From Isurus oxyrinchus (taxonomy: Eukaryota), in the NCBI GenBank assembly GCA_026770705.1, contig JANJGN010000041.1, forward strand, positions 5,704,001-5,768,000: DNA of 64,000 nt, given 5' to 3'. Every line of letters starts with the position of its first letter. Position 1 is the first letter of the stretch. The notes under the pieces are model-generated. The model searched no databases. It was not told the origin of the DNA and saw only the letters and a program-made list of their open reading frames with translations. Below are positions 38,520-60,800 of the stretch, one piece after another. The position numbers and the translations under genes were made by a program.

Positions 38520-39382
38520 TCTGATTCTGATATTGTCCAGCAGAGGGTAGATTGTTAAAGTTGTGTGTGTGATTCTGACATGGTCCAGCTGAGCGTAGAT
38601 TGGTAAAGGCCGGTGTGTGCTTCTGATATTGTCCAACAGAGGGTAGATTGGTAAAGGTATGTGTGTGATTCTGACATTGACCAGCAGAGGGTAGATTGGT
38701 ATAAAGTTTGTGTGTTGTTCTGACTTTGTCCAGCTGAGGGTAAATTGTTAAAGATGTGTTTGTGTGCGATTCTGATATTGTACTTGTGCAGCAGAGGGTA
38801 GATTGGTAAAGGTATGTGTGTGAACCTGATATTGTTCCTGTGTCGCAGAGGGTGGATTGGTAAAGGTGTGTGTGTGATTCTGACATTGACCAGTAGAGGG
38901 TAGATTGGTAAAGGTATGCATGTGATTCTGACTTTGTCCAGCTGAGTGTAGATTGTTAAAGATGTGTGTGTGTGATTCTGATATTGTGCTTGTGCAGCAG
39001 AGGGTAGATTGCTAAAGTTGTGTGTGTGATTCTGATATTGTGCTTGTGCAGCAGAGGGTAGATTGGTAAATATATGTGTGTGTATCTGATATTGTGATTG
39101 TGCAGCAGAGGGTAGATTGGTAAAGATGTGTGTGTGATTCTGATATTGTGCTGGTGCAGCAGAGGGTAGATTGCTAAAGGTGTGTGTGTGATGTTGAAAT
39201 TCTGTCACAGAGGGTGGATTGGTAAAGAGGAGTATGTGATTCTGACATTGGCCAGCAGAGTGCAGATTTGTTTGGGTGTGATTCTGACATTATCCAGCGG
39301 AGGGTTCATTGGTTAAAGTTTGTGTTTGATTCTGACATTGTCCAGTGGAGGGTAGATCGGTTAAAGTGTGTGTGTGTGTGAT
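38520..39382. repeat. Minisatellite with units of about 48 and 57 bp, about 16 copies
   Basis: Recurrent gtgtgtgattctga(t/c)attg...cagcagagggtagattggtaaag. This array produces the spurious ORFs 38512-38886 and 38555-39208. Confidence 0.95.
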
Positions 39383-39670
39383 TATTCGGTCCTTAGGGCC
39401 TGCAAAAAAAAAAAACAGAAAGGCCTCGGGAGCCGGAATGGAGTCAAAGGATGACAAAAGCAGAGATTCGTTGTGCTCTTCAACAGGTAAGGAAAGGGCA
39501 GATGGTCCCAGGCTAGATAGATGGAGAGGTCTCTGCTGGCGTGAAAGCACATCTGTAATGTAATCAATAAGGTGACAAGATTGGAATTTGAAGATTGTTC
39601 CTGTACGTGATCAGCAGTGTATAAAATAAGTTGTCTGCTTGTAGTATGCCATGGTGCTAGCTCATGTTGC

Positions 39671-42049: not shown

Positions 42050-42251
42050 CTCAAAGTGGAGAAAATCGTCATGGTGCGTGTGTTATTATTAACTACTGAA
42101 CAGTCAGTCAGTTCCTATAACGAGCATCCGTACTCCTGTTATCGCATTGGCACTCTGAGGAGATCAAATGACGTAGAAATCTCTGTTTTTGTGCTTGGAT
42201 TAATGGCCATGGCAGGGCCGCTTTACAGCCACAATCATTATACTACCTGAG
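42050..42251 (+). pseudogene. Beta-defensin-like copy A: promoter and signal-peptide exon 1 relic
   Basis: aaagtggag...gtgcgtgtgttattattaactac...tataacgagcatccgtactcc...ctctgagg aligns to 51335-51450. Encodes ISVFVLGLMAMAGPLYSHN, with an in-frame TGA just before the phase-1 donor G|gtcagt. Start codon lost. Confidence 0.7.
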
Positions 42252-42909
42252 GTCAGTGTATTTCACATTAATCGCTATAGATCAATATTGAATGGAAAAG
42301 GAGGTGTCCATTCAGCCCCTGAAGCCTGTATCTCTGATCAGTTGACAATTGGATGATGTGCACTGACCATCATCGCTCCAATTTATTTCCATAACCATTA
42401 AAACACTTATCAAATGTAAACCTATCAATTTCGGTTTTGGATCAATTCAACTAAAATGTATTGATGGCATTTTATTTATTGTAGGTTTGTCCAGTCTCCA
42501 TCAACATCATGCAATAATCTGCCTGTAACCCCCTCATGTGTCTCATTCACATGCTGTCCCTCAGCGATTTATTACATTCACTCTATACCATGCTGTCAAC
42601 ACACACCCTATCCACCATCGTATGATATTGTCTTGTCTGACAACCTTGCAAGATAAGTGGGCACCACAATTCTGCCTGATTCTGTATGCCCTGATATCAG
42701 TCGTTTCCTCATTGACGGCTGTGTCTTCTGTGGCTGGGGACAGATTCTTCAGCATTCCACTAAAACCCCCATGATTATTTTTCTCTATGGAAATTATTTT
42801 TCCTTATGCTACTGCTGAATCGCTCGCTTATCTCTAGATTTTGAATGCAAGATACGAGTTGTTTCCATTTTCGCTGTGCACAGGCAGGGTAACTGTATCT
42901 CTTGCTTAG

Positions 42910-43025
42910 ACCTCCCTTTGAGCACAGTGCCCAGAAGGAATCTCCAAATCCCTCGGGTAGACCACAGTAAGAACACTGTTCACTATTCTGGTATCAACAT
43001 TCCACTGTTCGTCCACACTTGGAAC
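42910..43025 (+). pseudogene. Possible exon 2 relic of defensin-like copy A
   Basis: Acceptor tctcttgcttag. Weak nucleotide similarity to copy C exon 2 (agcacagtgcccagaaggaatctccaa versus tgcacaaaatatggtgggaaatgccga) and to its 3' UTR. Cys codons are lost. Confidence 0.3.
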
Positions 43026-45354
43026 AATGATGGTCATCAATGAATTGTTCCTTTCACTTCGCCGGGCCTCACCATAGAACGTGACCTGATTGGAGGGAGA
43101 CACAGACTTGACAACTGTAAGGCAGTCAGGACCCGCGTCAGACAATGTTGTTGTCTGACATTCGACAGCAACAAGAGTAAGTGAGTTACTACAACTAAAT
43201 GTTTATCATTTGAGAGTTGCCTGAGGCCTTGTCTGAAGCTCACTGTAATTTCTGCAATTCATGATCTGCCAAATTGCTTAGATCTGATGACCCATTGCTC
43301 CCTGTTTCCTAAAAACTGTGAAGAAAACACAGTGCCTTGCACAATGCTTTTTGTCCAGCAATAAAGTCTCAACTTGGATCGGTGTGTTGCCATATTGACA
43401 GGTTTGGACGGGAGATCAGAAAATGGCAGGGCGGCAGTGACATCATGCAGCGGCAATATAGTCATCTGTGCAGAACACAAAACTTCCAAACAATGTCCGA
43501 GGAATGTTTCCCACCATCACTGATATGCCTTCTGATAGTATGATACTAGCAGGAAAGATACTCTAGGAATGATAATAAAGTGCCTAACAGCCGAGACGGG
43601 ATGACATTGAAAGGCCCCAACATTGACTATAGGCACTACAGTGTCTCAAACAGCATCAGGACAAACACGGGAAAGGAAGATTCCTGCTTCATCCCATCTC
43701 CCAGTCTCTGTAAGCAGATGAATATTTAGGTCCCCACCCTCCAACACATTTTTGACACGACTTGAAAGAAAACATGGCTGCGAAAAATGCACCCTGAATG
43801 TCAGTCTTGAATGGCAATTTTCAATTATGACACCGAACACCAGTACAGACGAGTTAGGCCAGGACTAAAAGGACAGACTGTAATGGTTCTAGAAGGCAGC
43901 TCATGATGAACTACTTCAAAAATATGCCCAGAAATGTGAAAGTGGTTGATGTATCTCGGCCTCATCCTGAGTCGTCCAATATCACAGGTATCAAAATTTA
44001 GCCATTTTATTTCACAATGGTATCATTGAATGAGACAAATTCAATACACACAATCTCCGTGCAGTAGGACTGAAGACGTGAATTGCCCCTCAGACAGACA
44101 GTCTTTTCAATTTGAAGAGCAGCATGCTGCTCACACTGTCTTAAAGGGTGTCACACGGGATTGTTTGTTTCACACATTCTCTCAAACAGAGTCCACGCAC
44201 CAACAACCTCTGCCCATCCCAAATGCCTCCAATCCAGCTTTGGAGAATATCATGCAAGAGTTGGAGTGATTAACAGTTTAGTGATCAATGTTTGAACGTC
44301 GCCATGTGTACTCATTATAAGAGCTAGATGACCTTGAGATGGAAATTGCACATGGAGCTTCCAGGAGAGATGGATGAAAACTCTGAAATTGGCCAGGAAA
44401 TCCCTCAGAAAGGATGGCAGCAGCCCAGAGATAAATATGCAGCAAGGTTATCCTCAGAAATATTTAGCCATCTGGGCAGATGGATATGAAGTTTGAAAGA
44501 GACAAGGAGATATAGCACAGGAGAAGGTTGGAGAAGCAATGAGAAAATAGGTAGGCGACCATAGGGCTGCAATGCAATCCGGTTTTCAGAAAGAGGAATG
44601 GTGATAATAGGGAAAATATCTACTTTCAAACAGGGAGCTTTTAGTGTCTGGAATGAACTGACTGAGAGTCAGCAGCAGACAGATTCCATCGTGGCTTTTT
44701 GAAGGGGATTCAATCACTATCTAGCAAGGAAAGATATACAGAGCCACGGTGAAATCGGGTGGTTAGAGCCTCGTTGAGAGTCCCTCGCTGAGTGGAAGCT
44801 CAGTGACGAAGGACAATGTTTACCTTCTGCTTGGGAATCATTGGATGATTCTATGGGGGAGAGGGTGAGTGTGAAATGGAGCAAGAGAAAATAATCGTGA
44901 CACAGTCACGGCAAAAATAACAACAGGTTTAGAGAGGTTAAGGCTGCGGGAGAAATGGATTCAGACAGAGAAAAACAGAAAAGGACAATTGAGTGAGAGA
45001 GTTTGATAACAGTTCAAGGTAAATGCGATTTTTCATTTACTGAATCAAACACAAATGCACAACACGATATAACAGTTTTCTTCAGAAATGTGCAAAAACA
45101 GCAGGATCAGCACCAAAAATAAAGGAAAATACCTTAGGTAGCTTATACTTTAAGTTATGAAACATGATCGTTCACTTAATACTTGTAATGAAAACCAGGA
45201 AAATAAATAAATAAACAAATATAAAAACAAAAATATGGATACATAGATAATTAAATAAGTAAATAAATGGGTACATGAATAAAAATATGACTAAATCAAA
45301 ATAAATAAATATAGATTGATTCCTTAATACGTAAATATAAAGGTAGGTAGGTAA

Positions 45355-50490: not shown

Positions 50491-51397
50491 CACCTGGGCA
50501 GCTGGGTAAAGCTGGGTGAGAGATTCAGAGAGAGAGCAAGAACAACGGGAAGCTGTGGACAGTGGTTGAGGAAGGGACAGACAAAAATGCAGAAGGAGAT
50601 AGCGTGATATAAGCACGAGGGATCCATTGTTAGCTTGACAGGCAGAGAGGAGAGAGGGGAAAAAAAGGAGATGAAGGAAGAGGTGGAAGCATTTATAGAA
50701 TAAAAACAACATTTACATTCGTATAGAGCCCTTAAAACGTAAGACTGTCCCAAAGAATTTCTCCATCAATATTCAAGCGCCATCAGTGATTTAACTTCCT
50801 GGAGACAATTTTCCCTTCGCAGACTACCCCTGATGAATACTAGTTGGCTAATCTTCATCTAACGGTGGCCCCATACTATTATCCAGACTGGGACATCTGG
50901 TGGTCAGCAGAACGACATTGAAAATAATTGCAGACAACAGCAAACTGAACTATATGGAAGCTGAGGAGACTGCCACTTAACACAGTTAGTTGTTGTGATC
51001 TAGAATGCTCTGCCTGACGGTAGGTTCAACAGGAACTTTCAGAATATGAGGTGTAATAATAACTGAAAGGAATAAACTGCAGGACAATGTGGAGACAACA
51101 TGTTAAAGGTGCTGGACTTAGTTTGCTGGTTCAAAGAGAAAGCATCTACTCAATGACTCGAAGGGCGTATTCTGTTTATGCTACTTACTAGAAGGACAGC
51201 AAATGCGTTCTTCCTAAGTGGGATCATTACCCAAATTGGACCATCAGAAATTAAGTAAATCGAATTTCGTTGTGAGACAAGCTTCTTCTTTGACTCCCAA
51301 TACAGTTCATCTAATTTATTGGTTTAATCTTCAATTAAAGTGGAGGCTGTCCGCTCAGTGCGAGTGTGATTATTAACTACCGGATCCTTTATGAGCT

Positions 51398-51405
51398 TAT
51401 ATAAA
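51398..51405 (+). promoter_or_regulatory. TATA box of defensin-like copy C
   Basis: TATATAAA, 60 nt upstream of the ancestral start position (51458). The equivalent position in copy A reads cctataac. Confidence 0.7.
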
Positions 51406-51457
51406 CAGCATCAGCACTCCAGCTATCACACTGCGTCTCTGAGGTGCTCAGCGGAAG

Positions 51458-51547
51458 ATTAAGACGGTGCTTTCTTGCTACTTGGAGTCCTGGTGATGAC
51501 GCAGCCCATCACATCCCAGCAGCTCCATTTCCTTATGGATTTTATTG
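51458..51547 (+). pseudogene. Beta-defensin-like copy C, exon 1 (signal peptide, damaged 5' end)
   Basis: ATT AAG ACG GTG CT- TTC TTG CTA CTT GGA GTC CTG GTG ATG ACG CAG CCC ATC ACA TCC...TTT ATT G|gtaagt reads (M)KTV(L)FLLLGVLVMTQPITSQQLHFLMDFI. It has ATT at the start position, a 1-nt deletion, an in-frame ATG at 51496 and a consensus phase-1 donor. Confidence 0.8.
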
Positions 51548-52039
51548 GTAAGTATGTCTCTACGTAATCTACATTGTGAAATATTGTCAGGTGCAGGAGG
51601 AGGCCATTTCGCTCCTCATGGTATTTTCAAAATAAAAAGATATTTTTTTTCAGATCGATACCTCAACTGCATTAGCGAACATTGATTCTGGAAACTTTAA
51701 TGATGTTTCCTCATATAAAATATATCAAGGTGAATTTCGACTGATTGAATACTATTGAAATATGCTAATATTTGGATGTATGGGCATTATCTCCAACTTT
51801 TTGCCATCTTCCAAAGATTCTTCCTTTCTCCCTGTCTGACTTCCCATCTGTTCGCAGCCACCGCTAATATCAGGTATAAACAAAGCATTGGCTTCCATAC
51901 ATCCGCAGAGGAGCCTAACTTGCCAGCTTGTGGTGCAACCTCGCCGTTTCTTCAACATTAACAGGTGACTGATCGAAAACCCGTATCAGCAAAGTTTTCC
52001 ACCAAATCGAATATATTTATACACCGCTTGGGACAATGA

Positions 52040-52720
52040 CTTCAAGTCCCAAACCAAACTCCATTCCCTGGATACCAGCGCCAGCCCTGTTCTTGGAACC
52101 TGTTTGAGGTGCAGACATAGTGAATTCAAAACACTGTTGTCCTGTTTCAAACACAGGCCTGTGTTATTGCAAAGGGCTCTTCAATCCACCTCAGTATCAT
52201 CGCCCGACCCATCCTCTGTCTCAGCTCATCTGCAGCTGAAGTACTCATCGACACATTTGACACTTTTATACATGACTATCCCAATGCAATCCTGGCTGTT
52301 CGATCGCATTTTAATCACCATAACCTGAGGCCATTCCAAAGCTCTGCTACCTTGGCAACTTAATTCACTTTGGCCCGCATTCATCAATCAAACCCTGAAC
52401 TCACTGAATTATATTGGTTCCTCGTTACGCAATAACCAGATTTTAAAACGGTCATTCTTGTTCTCAAATACCCGGTTGGTCATTCCCGTTCTTGCTCTGG
52501 AATCTCCTCTAGGCAGACAATTGCTGGAGATCTCTGTGCCCCTCTAGTTCGGGACTCTTGAGAATGCCTGCGTAATATCGCTGCGACATTGGCGGCTGTT
52601 AATTCAGGTGTCAGATACCTGAAAACTGGAATTCCTCCTAATTCCTATCCTGCTCCCACTTCCTCCTTAATCCTTTCTCCGTAAATAAATGTTTTGGTCA
52701 CCTCTCCAGTTCACTCCTCA
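52040..52720 (+). mobile_element. L2-type LINE 3' fragment inside the copy C intron
   Basis: tccaaagctctgctacc...attggttcctcgttacgcaataaccagattttaaaac...attggcggctgttaattcagg...ctggaattcctccta. Confidence 0.65.
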
Positions 52721-53155
52721 GGCGATTAGATGTATGATGCTGTTTGATAGAGCTCCTGTGAAGCAGTTTGGGTTGCAATATTGGGTGATCTCAGTTCCTG
52801 TTGTTTTATAAGATACGGAAAGTTCTGCTTGGTAGATGGAGGGAATATACTGTGACTTGTGGTCGGTAGCAACAATCTACGAAACGCCAACATATAAAAG
52901 TCACTAATAAAAGCAAGAAATAACATAGTGGAAACCTTTTTCACTCAGGAAGCAATGAATATGTGGAACTGGCCAGCACAGGGAGTGTTTGTGGTAAATA
53001 GTGTAGATGTATTTAAGATGAAACTGGATAAGCATGTGATAGGGAAAGTATTTCTATGCAACATCACATTCATCATGTGAGTCTAACATCTTATTGCCTC
53101 ACTGTTCTCCTACGCAGTCATACAGAGTGATAAATTTTCTGTTGCTACGTTTCAG

Positions 53156-53271
53156 GTCAATTATTCGGTTGCACAAAATATGGTGGGAAATGCCGAGAAT
53201 TGTTGTGGGGGCCACGTGAGCCTCTGCTACCTCAAATATGTCTCTGGAGCCGTCTCTGCTGCAGGAGTTAG
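53156..53271 (+). pseudogene. Beta-defensin-like copy C, exon 2 (mature peptide, open frame)
   Basis: Acceptor ttttctgttgctacgtttcag, phase 1, matching exon 1. Reads GQLFG C TKYGGK C RELL W GPREPLLPQI C LWSRL CC RS*, i.e. C-x6-C-x4-[W, TGG]-x10-C-x5-CC: beta-defensin spacing with Cys3 replaced. Confidence 0.85.
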
Positions 53272-53395
53272 TCATCTACCATAATGCATTAAGATGTGAA
53301 CCCGTCTGAGGCTGAGGCAGAAGACAATATTTAATCAGGGTTCACTTGATTATAGAGGCCCCGCGATTCCAGACCCACTGCTGTATGGAAATGTG

Positions 53396-53401
53396 AATAA
53401 A
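53396..53401 (+). terminator. Polyadenylation signal of copy C
   Basis: AATAAA 125 nt after the exon 2 stop codon. Confidence 0.6.
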
Positions 53402-54929
53402 TGTTGCTGCATTCATCATCACCTTTATTCATGGTCTCATTTATCACTCAGATCAGCTGATGGTCATGTTGAAATGGAGAGGTTCGGGGAGAGCGGGGTG
53501 TGGGCCATCAGAGAATGGCAGGGTCACATTGTCATTTCATAGCTCCAACATAGCCTCACACACACAGAATATCACCCGTCTGCCAATTCCACAACGTTAC
53601 AGACCCCACATGCCTCGTATGGTCAGTTTCCCTGGGAGGGTGGAAGTAATTGAACACTGGCATTCAGGCCGGCGGACAAGATCGGAGAGCCCTTAACAGT
53701 TAGTACAGATACCGCCCTGCATCATGGCATCAGGACAAACATGATTTTGTGATCTCCATGTCAGTAATCACATTCTGTCCTCCTGATGCAGAGTGGCTCT
53801 GCCATTATAATTAGGGGTGAAAGCTAGCTGTGTGATATGTTAATGAGACACAGTATACATCATCACAGGAAGTGAGGCAACGTTTAATGATCTTGCATTT
53901 TCTTTTCGACTTCATGGCAGGCAGAAGCTACAGTAAAGATATTTCTCAATTAAAACTTAATGTTTTGAATACATCAGTAGAAATTGTAAATATTCTGTGC
54001 AGTAATCACGATACCGTTTACATTATATGATGGCAGTGAGAGAACGATCAAACACAGGAAGTCCTAGCAGGGGCAGAAAGCTAAGAGCAGGCGGTAAATC
54101 TGAACCAGGCAGACACTTGGCTGAGTTGGCGCCTGTTTTTTGGCATATCTTGCAAGATTTGGTGTCTCCCTGAAAAATATAGCTTTGGGCAGGTCAGTGC
54201 GATATTAAAGATTGTTGGTGGCTGTGCAGATAATATCTTCGACTGGAAAGGGAGTGAAGCAGAACAAATATGTTGCAATGAAGTAATAAAAACACCCAAT
54301 GCCTACTTCTGCCTTTTAAATAATACCAATATCCTGCCACTTAGATTTAAGAAGCAATCACAGCAAAAAGGGAAATGAATGAATACACTTAACGACGGCC
54401 TGCATGGACTTGCAGAGAAATGTGAACATGGCAGCTTAATGCTGAACAAAGCAAGAACAGATTAGGCCTTGGAGTCTAGGATGTAGCATTGCTTCACCAA
54501 TTGCAGTGTGTGGATGATTGTACCTTAACACAGGCAATTCATCCCAGCAGAGAAGCTGAGTTCAAGATATAGACTCAATCCATGATTGGTGCTGTCAGGG
54601 GGAAATATGCCGCTAAAGTAAACATAGTTTCAGTGAAATAGGTTAACCTTAAAAACAGAGAGGGAGCCCTGAAAGAAAAGAATGGAAGGCAGGAGGATCG
54701 TACAGCAACTTCCCAGCTAAATGTTTCAGTGTGGTGGGAAGGAAGGGAGAGCGGGTGAAGTGTGGAAATTATCCCTCCAAAGAATTTGGAGGACAGTTGT
54801 TCCAGAAAGAGTGGTGACTTTCAGTTGCAAGTCACAGTCAGATGCTAGGACAGAATAATTGAAATGAAAAAAAAAATAAACATCAAAAGAGAAATCAATT
54901 TCACAGGACATGGCGTCACGTCTTGTGAT

Positions 54930-57895: not shown

Positions 57896-60800
57896 ACTAG
57901 ATACGAACACCCACAGTCGTTGGGACAGTGAGTTGGGCCATCCCAGGGACCAGACCCGAACACACCCAGATCTCGGGACAATGATGTAGTCCAGACAATG
58001 ATCTGAACACGATGAAAACCAAATGTCGGAAAAGGGAGCTGAACGAGAGCAGGGACTATACACGAAAACCCCAAGACCCCGGGACAGTGAGTTGACAGAC
58101 AGCAGTGACTAGCCCCCAAAACTCCCACACCTCGGGTACAGTGAGCTTATACAACCCAGGGTCTAGACACGAGCAACCCAAGACCACCGGACACTGAGGT
58201 GGTCCAGTCCAGTGTCTAGTCCCGCATACCCCCAGGCCACAGGGCTGTGATTTGGCACAACCCAGTGATCAGACCTGGATACCTCCAGACCTCTGGTACA
58301 ATGAGCGAGCCCAGCCAATGGACCAAACATGAAAACTCCCAGACCTCAGGACAGTAAGCTGGTGCAGCCCAAGAACCAGACACAAAAACCCTACAACTTG
58401 GGGGAGTGTGCTGACCCAGCCCAGGGACGTGACCCGAATGAACACAGAGCTCGGAGTAGTGAGCTGGCCCAGCTCAGGGATTAGACACGAACATCTCCAG
58501 ACATTGATTCAGTGAGCTGGCCCAGTTCTGGGACTAGACCCGAACACCCTCAGACATCGGGACACTGAGCTGGCTGAGCTCAGGGAATAGACCCAAACAC
58601 CCTTAGACCTCGGGACACAGAGCTGGCCCAGCTCAGGTACTAGACACGAACACCCTCAGACCTCAGGACAATGAGGTGGCCCAGCTCAGGGACTAGATGT
58701 GAACATCCTCAATTCTCGGGACACTGCTCTGTTCCAGCTCAGGAACTAGAAACAAACACCCCCAGACCTCGGGACAGTGAGCTGGTCCAGCTCAGGGAAT
58801 AGACACATAAACCCGCAGACCTCTGTAATGTGAGCATGATGAGCCCAAGGACTAGATCTTTATGCTCCCAGACCTCGGCAGAGTGAGCTGGCCCAGCCCG
58901 GGGTCCTGAATCGAGCACCAAAAGACCTCAGGACAGTGAGCGCCCCCAGCCCGGAGATTGGATATGAACATTCTGAAGGCTCAGGTGCAATGAGCTGGGC
59001 CAGACCAAGAACCAGAAACAATCACCCCCAGACCTCAGTACTGTAAGCTGCTCCATCCCAGTGACTAGAGGCGAACTCCCCTAGAAAACGGGACAGTGAG
59101 CTGGACCAGAACAATGATCAGACCCAAACACCATCACACCTCAGGACAGTGAGCCTGCCCAGCTTAGTGACCAGATCCAAACACCACCAGACCTCGGAAC
59201 AGTGAGCAGAGCCAGCCCAGGGACTAGCTGTGAAAAAACACCAGACCACTTCTAGATTGAGCTTTCCCAGCCAAGGTACTGGACACGGACACTCCCAGAA
59301 AATGGGACAGTGAGCTCACCCCGAACAGGGACTAGACCCAAACACCATCTGACCTCGGGACAGTGAGCTGAGCCAGGCCAGCGACTAGACGCAAAAAAAA
59401 AAAGCAGACCACTTGTATCTTGAGTTTGCCAAGCCCAGGGACTGGACGCGGACACTCCCAGAAAACGGGACAGTGAGCTGGGCCAGAACAGGGACGAGAC
59501 CCAGCACCCCTTGAGCTCTGGACAGTGAGCTTGTTTAGAACAGGACCAACACCCGAACACCGACAGACCTTGAGTATAGTGAGCTGGCCAGACCAGGCTC
59601 TGGAACAGGACACCAAAGAACTTTGGGACAGTGAGCTCTACCAGTCCACGGACTAGACTTGAAGACCCACAGCGGTCAAGTACAGTGGGCAGGCCAGGCC
59701 CAGGGACAGGACAGGAACAATCCCAGAACTAAGATCAGTGATCTGGCCCAGCGCAGGGACTAGACCCAAATACTCCCAGAGTACGGGACAGTGCTCTGGC
59801 AAAGTTCAGGAACTGGAACTGAACACAACCAAACATCGGGACATTGAGCTTATATAGAACAGGGACTACACAAAACACCAACAGACCTCGAGTACAGTGA
59901 GCTGGCCCAGACCAGGCTCTGGACCAGGGCACCAATGTACTTTGGGACAATGAGCTGAAAAAGTCCACAGACTTGAACTGAATAACCCCACAGGTTGGGT
60001 ACAGTGAGTAGGCCCAGGCCAGGTGCAGGAGACGAACCATCCCAGACCACGGGGCAGTGAACTGACATAGCCCAGTGACTAGACGTGAACACCCCAAAAC
60101 CTTGGGACAATAAGCTGGACAACTTCAGGGACAAGAGACGAAATCCCCCAGGCCTCGAGTACAGTGAGATGGTCCGCACCAGGGACCAGACCCGAAAAGC
60201 CCCAGAACTCAGGACAGTGAGCTGTTCTAGCCAAGGGACCGGACACAAACACCCCCAGAACTCAGGACAGAGAGTTGTCCCAGCCCAGGGACTGGAGTGG
60301 AACACCCACGGGCCTCGGGACAGTGAGCTGGCCCAGCACAGAAGCGAGGCCAGAGCACCGCCTGACCTGAGGACAGTGTGGTGACCCAACCCCTTGACCA
60401 GACACAGACACGCTCAGTTCTCGGAACAGAGAGCTGACCTAGCCCAGTGTCTAGACCCAAAAAAACACAGACCTGCTTTACAGTGAGCTCGCCCAGCCCT
60501 GGTACTAGACCCGAAGACCCGCAGTGCTTGGGGAAGTGAGAGGGCCCAGCCAAGGGACCAGACCCAAACAAAAACAGTCATCAGAGTAGTGAGCTAGTCT
60601 AGCCCAGGAGCAGGACTCGAACACACCCCAGTCCACGGGACAGTGAGCTAGGCCAGCCCAGGGGCAGGACTCGAACACACCCCAGACCTCGAGATAGTAA
60701 TCTTGCCCTGCCCAGGGACTTGAATCGAGAAGTGAGCTGGTCCATGCAAGGCTCTATTACCAAACAACCCAAGACCTCGGGTACAGTGAAGTGGCCCAGA

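Follow-up and report, generated by a model that had tools for sequence, protein, structure and literature searches.

Structure of the locus

The window, by which we mean the whole stretch of 64,000 nucleotides analysed here, C41:5704001-5768000, carries on its forward strand a two-exon unit, called copy C below, of which promoter, exons, intron and processing signals can all be delimited. The genome is a shark's, to judge by its RAG1, whose identity amounts to 92-95% with three sharks, 87-88% with three rays, 85% with a partial chimaera sequence and no more than 83% with the remaining vertebrates listed. A 16-nucleotide upstream motif (51365..51380), common in the alignment to the defensin subtypes examined, is followed by a TATA box TATATAAA (51398..51405), and this same TATATAAA is present in 19 of the 21 copies of the subfamily described below. 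The coding part of exon 1 (51458..51547), a former signal peptide with a short pro-piece, measures 90 nucleotides, against 91 in intact copies. It is separated from exon 2 by a phase-1 GT-AG intron of 1608 nucleotides (51548..53155; 1589-1642 nucleotides for the orthologous introns of the paralogues), with G/GTAAGT as donor after 51547 and TTTCAG/GT as acceptor before 53156. The coding part of exon 2 (53156..53292) encodes the defensin core, with the pattern C-x6-C-x4-[W]-x10-C-x5-CC, followed by the old C-terminal tail; it is open as far as an early TAG and keeps five of its six cysteines. A polyadenylation signal AATAAA, found in 20 of the 21 copies, stands at 53396..53401. The original prediction, which described TATA box, donor, phase-matched acceptor, open exon 2 and AATAAA as intact, was accurate in all these respects.

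The first ATG downstream of the TATA box (51496..51498) is an internal one, which encodes a methionine of the old signal peptide, is in frame with exon 2 and has its counterpart in 12 of the 19 paralogues aligned. Translation from this codon confirms the spliced product of 55 amino acids and five cysteines that had been proposed. With TGG at the third cysteine, that product lacks the six-cysteine motif and, given the ATT start and the frameshift, it lacks a signal peptide with its hydrophobic core as well: in the hydropathy proxy that we used for signal peptides, its peak over nine residues is 1.39, against 2.99-3.34 in four of the four intact precursors tested. The stop-start overlap TGATG at 51494-51498 was considered as a designed re-initiation signal and rejected, being a chance by-product of an inherited GTG-ATG pair.

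Elsewhere in the window, an older defensin relic with a broken signal exon and a decayed cysteine exon lies on the plus strand (42074-43330), and its intron houses, at about 42900-43030, a piece related to a satellite with a 51-bp unit. On the minus strand (about 47957-47850), another older relic consists of a signal exon that has ACG in place of the start codon, and no exon 2 was found for it. The window further contains a long degenerate minisatellite (57896-60720; 53 copies of a 53-nucleotide unit) and another one, with a unit of 48-54 nucleotides, at 38522-39383, in a segment that is inverted with respect to the duplicated block discussed below.

A subfamily of 21 copies

Searching the genome at the DNA level with exon 2 recovered 21 copies, two on the contig of the window, C41, and 19 on contigs C39 and C56, and a search with exon 1 gave a like result. 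The 20 other copies were aligned with copy C, and lesions were scored against the 19 copies of C39 and C56. Thirteen members of the subfamily are intact and encode a 75-residue precursor; three depart from this only by an ATT start, two contain stops (L026, L029), one is frameshifted (L035), and copy C and its duplicate L021 complete the set. The phase-1 intron occupies an identical place in all 21, so far as a two-exon structure can be predicted from genomic DNA.

The three ATT-only copies, L022 (C56:777 kb), L023 (C56:372 kb) and L027 (C39:8.35 Mb), are otherwise intact and have a purine at -3. The ATT start, present in five of the 21 copies, is scattered on the intron tree, and each of these three has close ATG kin; either a null state was spread by conversion, or there is low-level expression from AUU starts. 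In six other loci (L039, L040, L030, L031, L036, L038) exon 1 ends with Lys-Arg or Asp-Arg, followed by a short hydrophobic stretch before the core. This dibasic or Asp-Arg site is a possible candidate for cutting by a convertase, and its arginine is absent from the branch of copy C and from the nearest paralogues.

The duplicate, L021, is situated 1.16 Mb away, at C41:4.60 Mb. It is approximately 99% identical to copy C (17 of 1607 intron sites differ), holds all four lesions described below, and differs in exon 2 by two synonymous changes, too few to test. On the intron tree the two form a single clade (support 100), with a branch of 0.074-0.079 and tips of 0.005, and copy C is diverged by about 14% from the C39 and C56 copies. 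The duplication is segmental: the block aligns over most of the window, and alignment was obtained again with a probe some 80 kb beyond it but not with one placed 100 kb before it. The duplicate is unlikely to be an uncollapsed allele, as the identity of the block is 95-98.6%, with an inversion and large indels.

Relation to beta-defensins

All 13 intact and all three ATT-only copies display the arrangement C-x6-C-x4-C-x10-C-x5-CC, which agrees with the motif reported for avian beta-defensins, C-x4-6-C-x3-5-C-x9-10-C-x5-6-CC (PMC3161384). Beta-defensins other than those of teleosts are described as having two exons, the first with the signal peptide and the second with the six cysteines, whereas in teleosts the cysteines are split over exons 2 and 3 (PMC11541337); in the present subfamily, as its genes are predicted, all six stand in one exon of a two-exon gene. 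The intact precursors also possess a signal peptide according to the hydropathy proxy, in four of four cases.

Exon 2 of copy C gave no family match in Pfam; against PF00711, with its cut-off of 21 bits, one of four exons of the subfamily matched weakly, at 12.2 bits and thus under the cut-off, and one of six more distant relatives reached 23.3 bits. A profile built from 12 family sequences retrieved from the PDB crotamine (E 0.0027, the best match) and human beta-defensin 3 (E 0.0041). Profile searches of large protein collections with the family returned no match, which, with queries so short, is no proof of absence.

The model of an intact paralogue, L037 (pLDDT 70.8), shows a helix and three strands. 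Its best 18 matches in Foldseek are all beta-defensins, with a probability up to 0.97 and none at E <= 0.001, and so are its best 8 in VIA, where the top one, to CpoBD13, has a Z of 4.2 and an rmsd of 1.4 over 34 residues. Crotamine comes only 30th and 15th in these two comparisons. It belongs to the venom peptides of defensin fold, which share their cysteine frame with the shark family; in contrast, exon 2 carries in this subfamily a charge of just +2 to +6, and nothing indicates a venom role. The AlphaFold model of exon 2 of copy C, a weak one made from a shallow alignment, has a pLDDT of 54.8 and a pTM of 0.21.

The ancestor of copy C is therefore best filed as a beta-defensin and, to judge from models and sequence, would have worked like one. 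The family call of the original prediction is supported by the PDB profile matches and by the fold matches of L037, with one relative above the PF00711 cut-off. The intact paralogues share with vertebrate beta-defensins (PF00711; human BD-1, -2, -3 and -6, crocodile CpoBD13, mallard AvBD3) the cysteine spacing, the succession of a signal-peptide exon and a six-cysteine exon, and the predicted helix and three strands. Copy C differs from them by the loss of start codon, signal frame, third cysteine and tail. In beta-defensins the disulfide bridges pair cysteines 1-5, 2-4 and 3-6.

The coding lesions and their reality

At 51458..51460 the start codon is replaced by ATT, where 16 of the 19 paralogues have ATG and L021, L022, L023 and L027 also have ATT. 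One base is absent between 51471 and 51472: all 19 paralogues have an extra base there (G in 18, C in one), and L021 shares the gap. The frame opened by the ATT ends at TGA 51494-51496, after only 12 codons. In exon 2, the third cysteine has become tryptophan through a TGG (53206..53208), also seen in L021 and in an X1 contig, against TGC or TGT in 19/19 paralogues. These three lesions had been recognized at the outset, and all three are real when judged against the 19 paralogues. The deletion had moreover been placed beside a T run, and on this point the run has to be dismissed as a cause: since the missing base is a G, outside any run, a homopolymer slip is ruled out and the short T run is a product of the deletion. 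A fourth lesion, which was overlooked, is seen in the sequence as a premature TAG (53269..53271) that removes a seven-residue tail; all 19 paralogues continue for seven codons to a TAA, and the window still holds the old TAA at 53290-53292.

The suspicion that the deletion might be an assembly error called for a check of raw reads around it and around the TGG. Short-read contigs of the X1 set, with a depth of about 80 and possibly from the assembly's own sample, show neither difference nor gap with the window over 51386-51511, while over 52621-53548 they depart from it by six substitutions and one gap, all of them away from the lesions. The second sample, S2 (a single sample with raw reads X5-X7, of which about 4% per run were read), lists no reversal at any lesion; it covers exon 1 with about 8 reads and exon 2 with about 2. 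As differences are listed only from three reads upwards, the support from S2 for the exon-2 lesions is thin. A single X6 read has the other letter at 53132 as well as at 53217, with one further difference in each case, and, as we interpret it, leaves the TGG unchanged. L021, the X1 contigs and the thin S2 reads thus agree with the window, against the notion of an assembly error, and indicate, for at most two samples, that the lesions are fixed rather than errors or rare alleles.

For all that, the window represents the species imperfectly, because some 14 private letters over 2.7 kb are unseen in the S2 reads; none is a lesion. At 12 substitution sites where the window differs from L021, 44 of 45 S2 read observations carry the other letter, and none of the private letters of L021 is listed among the S2 differences. 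The 105 S2 reads that fall between 51000 and 53700 correspond to a depth of about 5.5x, where one haploid copy should yield 1.15x. The genome may hold four or five nearly identical copies, or those in the assembly may be private haplotypes. The transition/transversion ratio of 0.67 between copy C and L021 was considered as a sign of assembly error and discarded, as deep pairs also give 0.65-1.0.

Age of the lesions and meaning of the intact signals

Neutral decay was simulated from an intact paralogue. At a branch of 0.079 it produces on average 2.3 lesions, with a probability of 0.20 for at least four, which falls to 0.037 at 0.04 and to 0.005 at 0.02. When the tail stop is ignored, the probability that a first core hit is followed by two more is 0.04-0.05 at 0.01 and 0.12-0.14 at 0.02. 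The lesion count is thus compatible with drift, and a very recent death of copy C is disfavoured because there are three or four lesions, which tells against the adjective "recent" that had been attached to the pseudogene. Only a loose date results. The argument from age would be weaker if the TAG were harmless and the ATT acquired by conversion, as may be the case.

The transcription unit had also been described as complete, which is no sign of life. Seven of the eight broken copies of the subfamily keep the same TATA, splice and polyadenylation signals, and under the neutral null TATA, GT, AG and AATAAA are all spared with a probability of 0.27-0.52; for these two reasons their integrity is uninformative. 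The 16-nucleotide motif and the core signals, about 34 sites together, are unchanged, with a rough chance of 0.06, derived from branch length, if the whole branch were neutral. Promoter, exon 1 and intron show about 6% of changes specific to copy C, and exon 2 shows 4-5%. Coding change is thus about equal to intron change, but the same holds in intact lineages, which evolve at a like speed with similar counts, so this rate test has little power and cannot separate drift from constraint; dN/dS, with no power at 75 codons, was rejected as a test of function.

What copy C is, and what it is not

We consider it very probable that copy C is a duplicated beta-defensin gene with four coding lesions, most likely a dead pseudogene that makes no working defensin. 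It retains the parental intron and promoter and carries disabling changes against intact paralogues, as is expected of a duplicated, non-processed pseudogene, and the pseudogene option offered by the original prediction is the one that we favour. According to the alignment, the ancestor was a two-exon gene for a 75-residue precursor, presumably secreted, like the 13 intact copies. Amid many such copies constraint would have been lost. The lost start, the frameshift, the replacement of Cys3 by Trp and the early stop all accrued before the segmental duplication on C41, because both copies carry all four. A search of sequencing runs listed none with RNA for this sequence, a result that speaks neither for nor against expression. 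Were copy C transcribed, ribosomes scanning the message would begin at the internal ATG, which would give the 55-residue peptide without the hydrophobic signal core, whereas initiation at ATT would, by the computed frame, yield only a 12-codon peptide. By the general rules of secretion, the 55-residue product would stay out of the endoplasmic reticulum and be unable to form disulfides. It would then remain in the cytosol without a three-disulfide fold, probably to be degraded.

It is worth asking whether this very product could have been put to use, copy C being expressed, in a new role as a cationic peptide that acts in the cytosol or is released by an unconventional route. A purine stands at -3 of its ATG, which splicing joins in frame to exon 2; the net charge of exon 2 is +4 as against +2 to +3 in the nearest intact copies, and neither assembled copy interrupts the reading frame, their differences in exon 2 being synonymous in two cases out of two. 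We find this unlikely: the methionine is inherited and no innovation, the signal core is gone, the lesion count and the intact signals are compatible with drift, and exon 2 of copy C is modelled with less confidence than the intact paralogue (pLDDT 54.8 vs 70.8, a weak indication, as the alignments are shallow). Nor did positive evidence emerge for the odd-cysteine, non-secreted variant that the original prediction had listed among its options. A yet different service, as an RNA or as a donor of gene conversion to intact copies while giving no useful protein, would account for the intact promoter motif and processing signals, and the ATT starts scattered over five of the 21 copies, with close ATG kin, do suggest exchange among copies. 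Such a service appears very unlikely for copy C, which lies on a different contig and is some 14% diverged from the C39 and C56 copies; moreover, flanking diagnostic letters confine the shared ATT tract to about 15 nucleotides and the promoter changes at the rate of the intron.

That the gene should be intact in the species, the lesions being assembly errors or a segregating null allele, is scarcely credible. Private letters of the window are contradicted by the S2 reads, and read depth hints at more near-identical copies than were assembled, but no private letter is a lesion, L021 and the X1 contigs have all four, S2 lists no reversal, the deleted base lies outside a homopolymer, and four separate changes would have to coincide. 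The polymorphic null allele put forward in the original prediction is unlikely on the same grounds, because both assembled copies share four lesions that predate a duplication diverged by about 1%. Copy C as a dead pseudogene remains our preferred reading, and in itself it is just one more gene lost in the usual course of gene birth and death.

A probable large defensin repertoire

Genome-wide, the 16-nucleotide promoter motif is matched exactly 384 times, and its reversed control twice. Among 100 matches listed, 78 fall in the first 2.0 Mb of a 5.3-Mb contig, C45, and 7 are single on large contigs, about the chance rate. Sixty sites, 4 on C41 and 56 on C45, were examined from the listed matches, chosen regardless of content. 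All 60 lead into a signal-peptide exon with an ATG, 51 have a cysteine-rich exon within about 3 kb, and 44 were scored as intact by script. For the 56 sites of C45, an unbroken six-cysteine core was found in 43, of which 28 are distinct, with charges from -2 to +5. The part of C45 from 2.1 to 5.3 Mb was sampled in twenty 10-kb pieces at even spacing, which contained 14 motifs, 14 signal starts and 22 six-cysteine cores; extrapolation gives about 370 (from motifs or signal starts) to about 590 (from cores) defensin-like units on C45, for one assembly.

About ten beta-defensin-like subtypes were observed on C45 (loci L041-L051, L076-L131, L133-L152), most of those sampled having an unbroken six-cysteine exon. 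Two subtypes with a first exon of 69 nucleotides (L093, L119, L084, L086) combine a strong donor in phase 0 with an acceptor in phase 1; on sequence, such a mismatch would imply a micro-exon or an unusual donor, and neither was found at these four loci. Others (L087, L096, L047, L051) have long proline-rich C-terminal tails, with extra cysteines after or within the core. Between the defensin genes of C45 is found the satellite with a 51-bp unit, one frame of which reads as cysteine-rich repeats. On the minus strand of C41, four near-identical intact genes of another subtype (L072-L075, at 2.28, 3.39, 4.30 and 6.76 Mb) are spaced by about 1-2.5 Mb, which suggests megabase-scale repeat units.

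By way of comparison, 66 beta-defensin genes are reported for the Komodo dragon (PMC6716921), 63 for the lizard Podarcis lilfordi (PMC12278569), and up to 28 per species for mammals among the rows listed in PMC10562630. The shark genes are likewise clustered, with shared signal exons, diverging mature peptides and recent duplications. They differ from the reptile clusters of 63-66 genes by an estimate of 370-590 units on one 5.3-Mb contig, by further clusters on three other contigs, and by spacing with satellite DNA. As for cartilaginous fish, the antimicrobials given in section 14 of a 2019 review are limited to transferrin, squalamine and kenojeinin I, with no shark defensin among them (PMC6795676); in a shark skin proteome paper the word defensin occurs only in the references (PMC10707392). 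Among the papers listed by literature searches, none describes shark beta-defensins in its title or abstract opening, though the gene table of a shark genome paper might include them.

We lean towards the view that copy C is a remnant within a family of some 300-600 beta-defensin-like genes, mostly intact and of at least ten subtypes, which share one promoter motif and reside mostly on a single small chromosome. This would be the largest known vertebrate defensin repertoire, in a lineage for which we found no beta-defensin repertoire described. These short genes were missed by protein databases, yet they were found at once via the 16-nucleotide promoter motif. Should several hundred intact genes prove real, the innate defences of sharks would include a large arsenal that has escaped annotation; the two-exon beta-defensins of vertebrates would then date back to the shark lineage, and the family would constitute a natural peptide library, with core charges from -2 to +5, that is directly testable.
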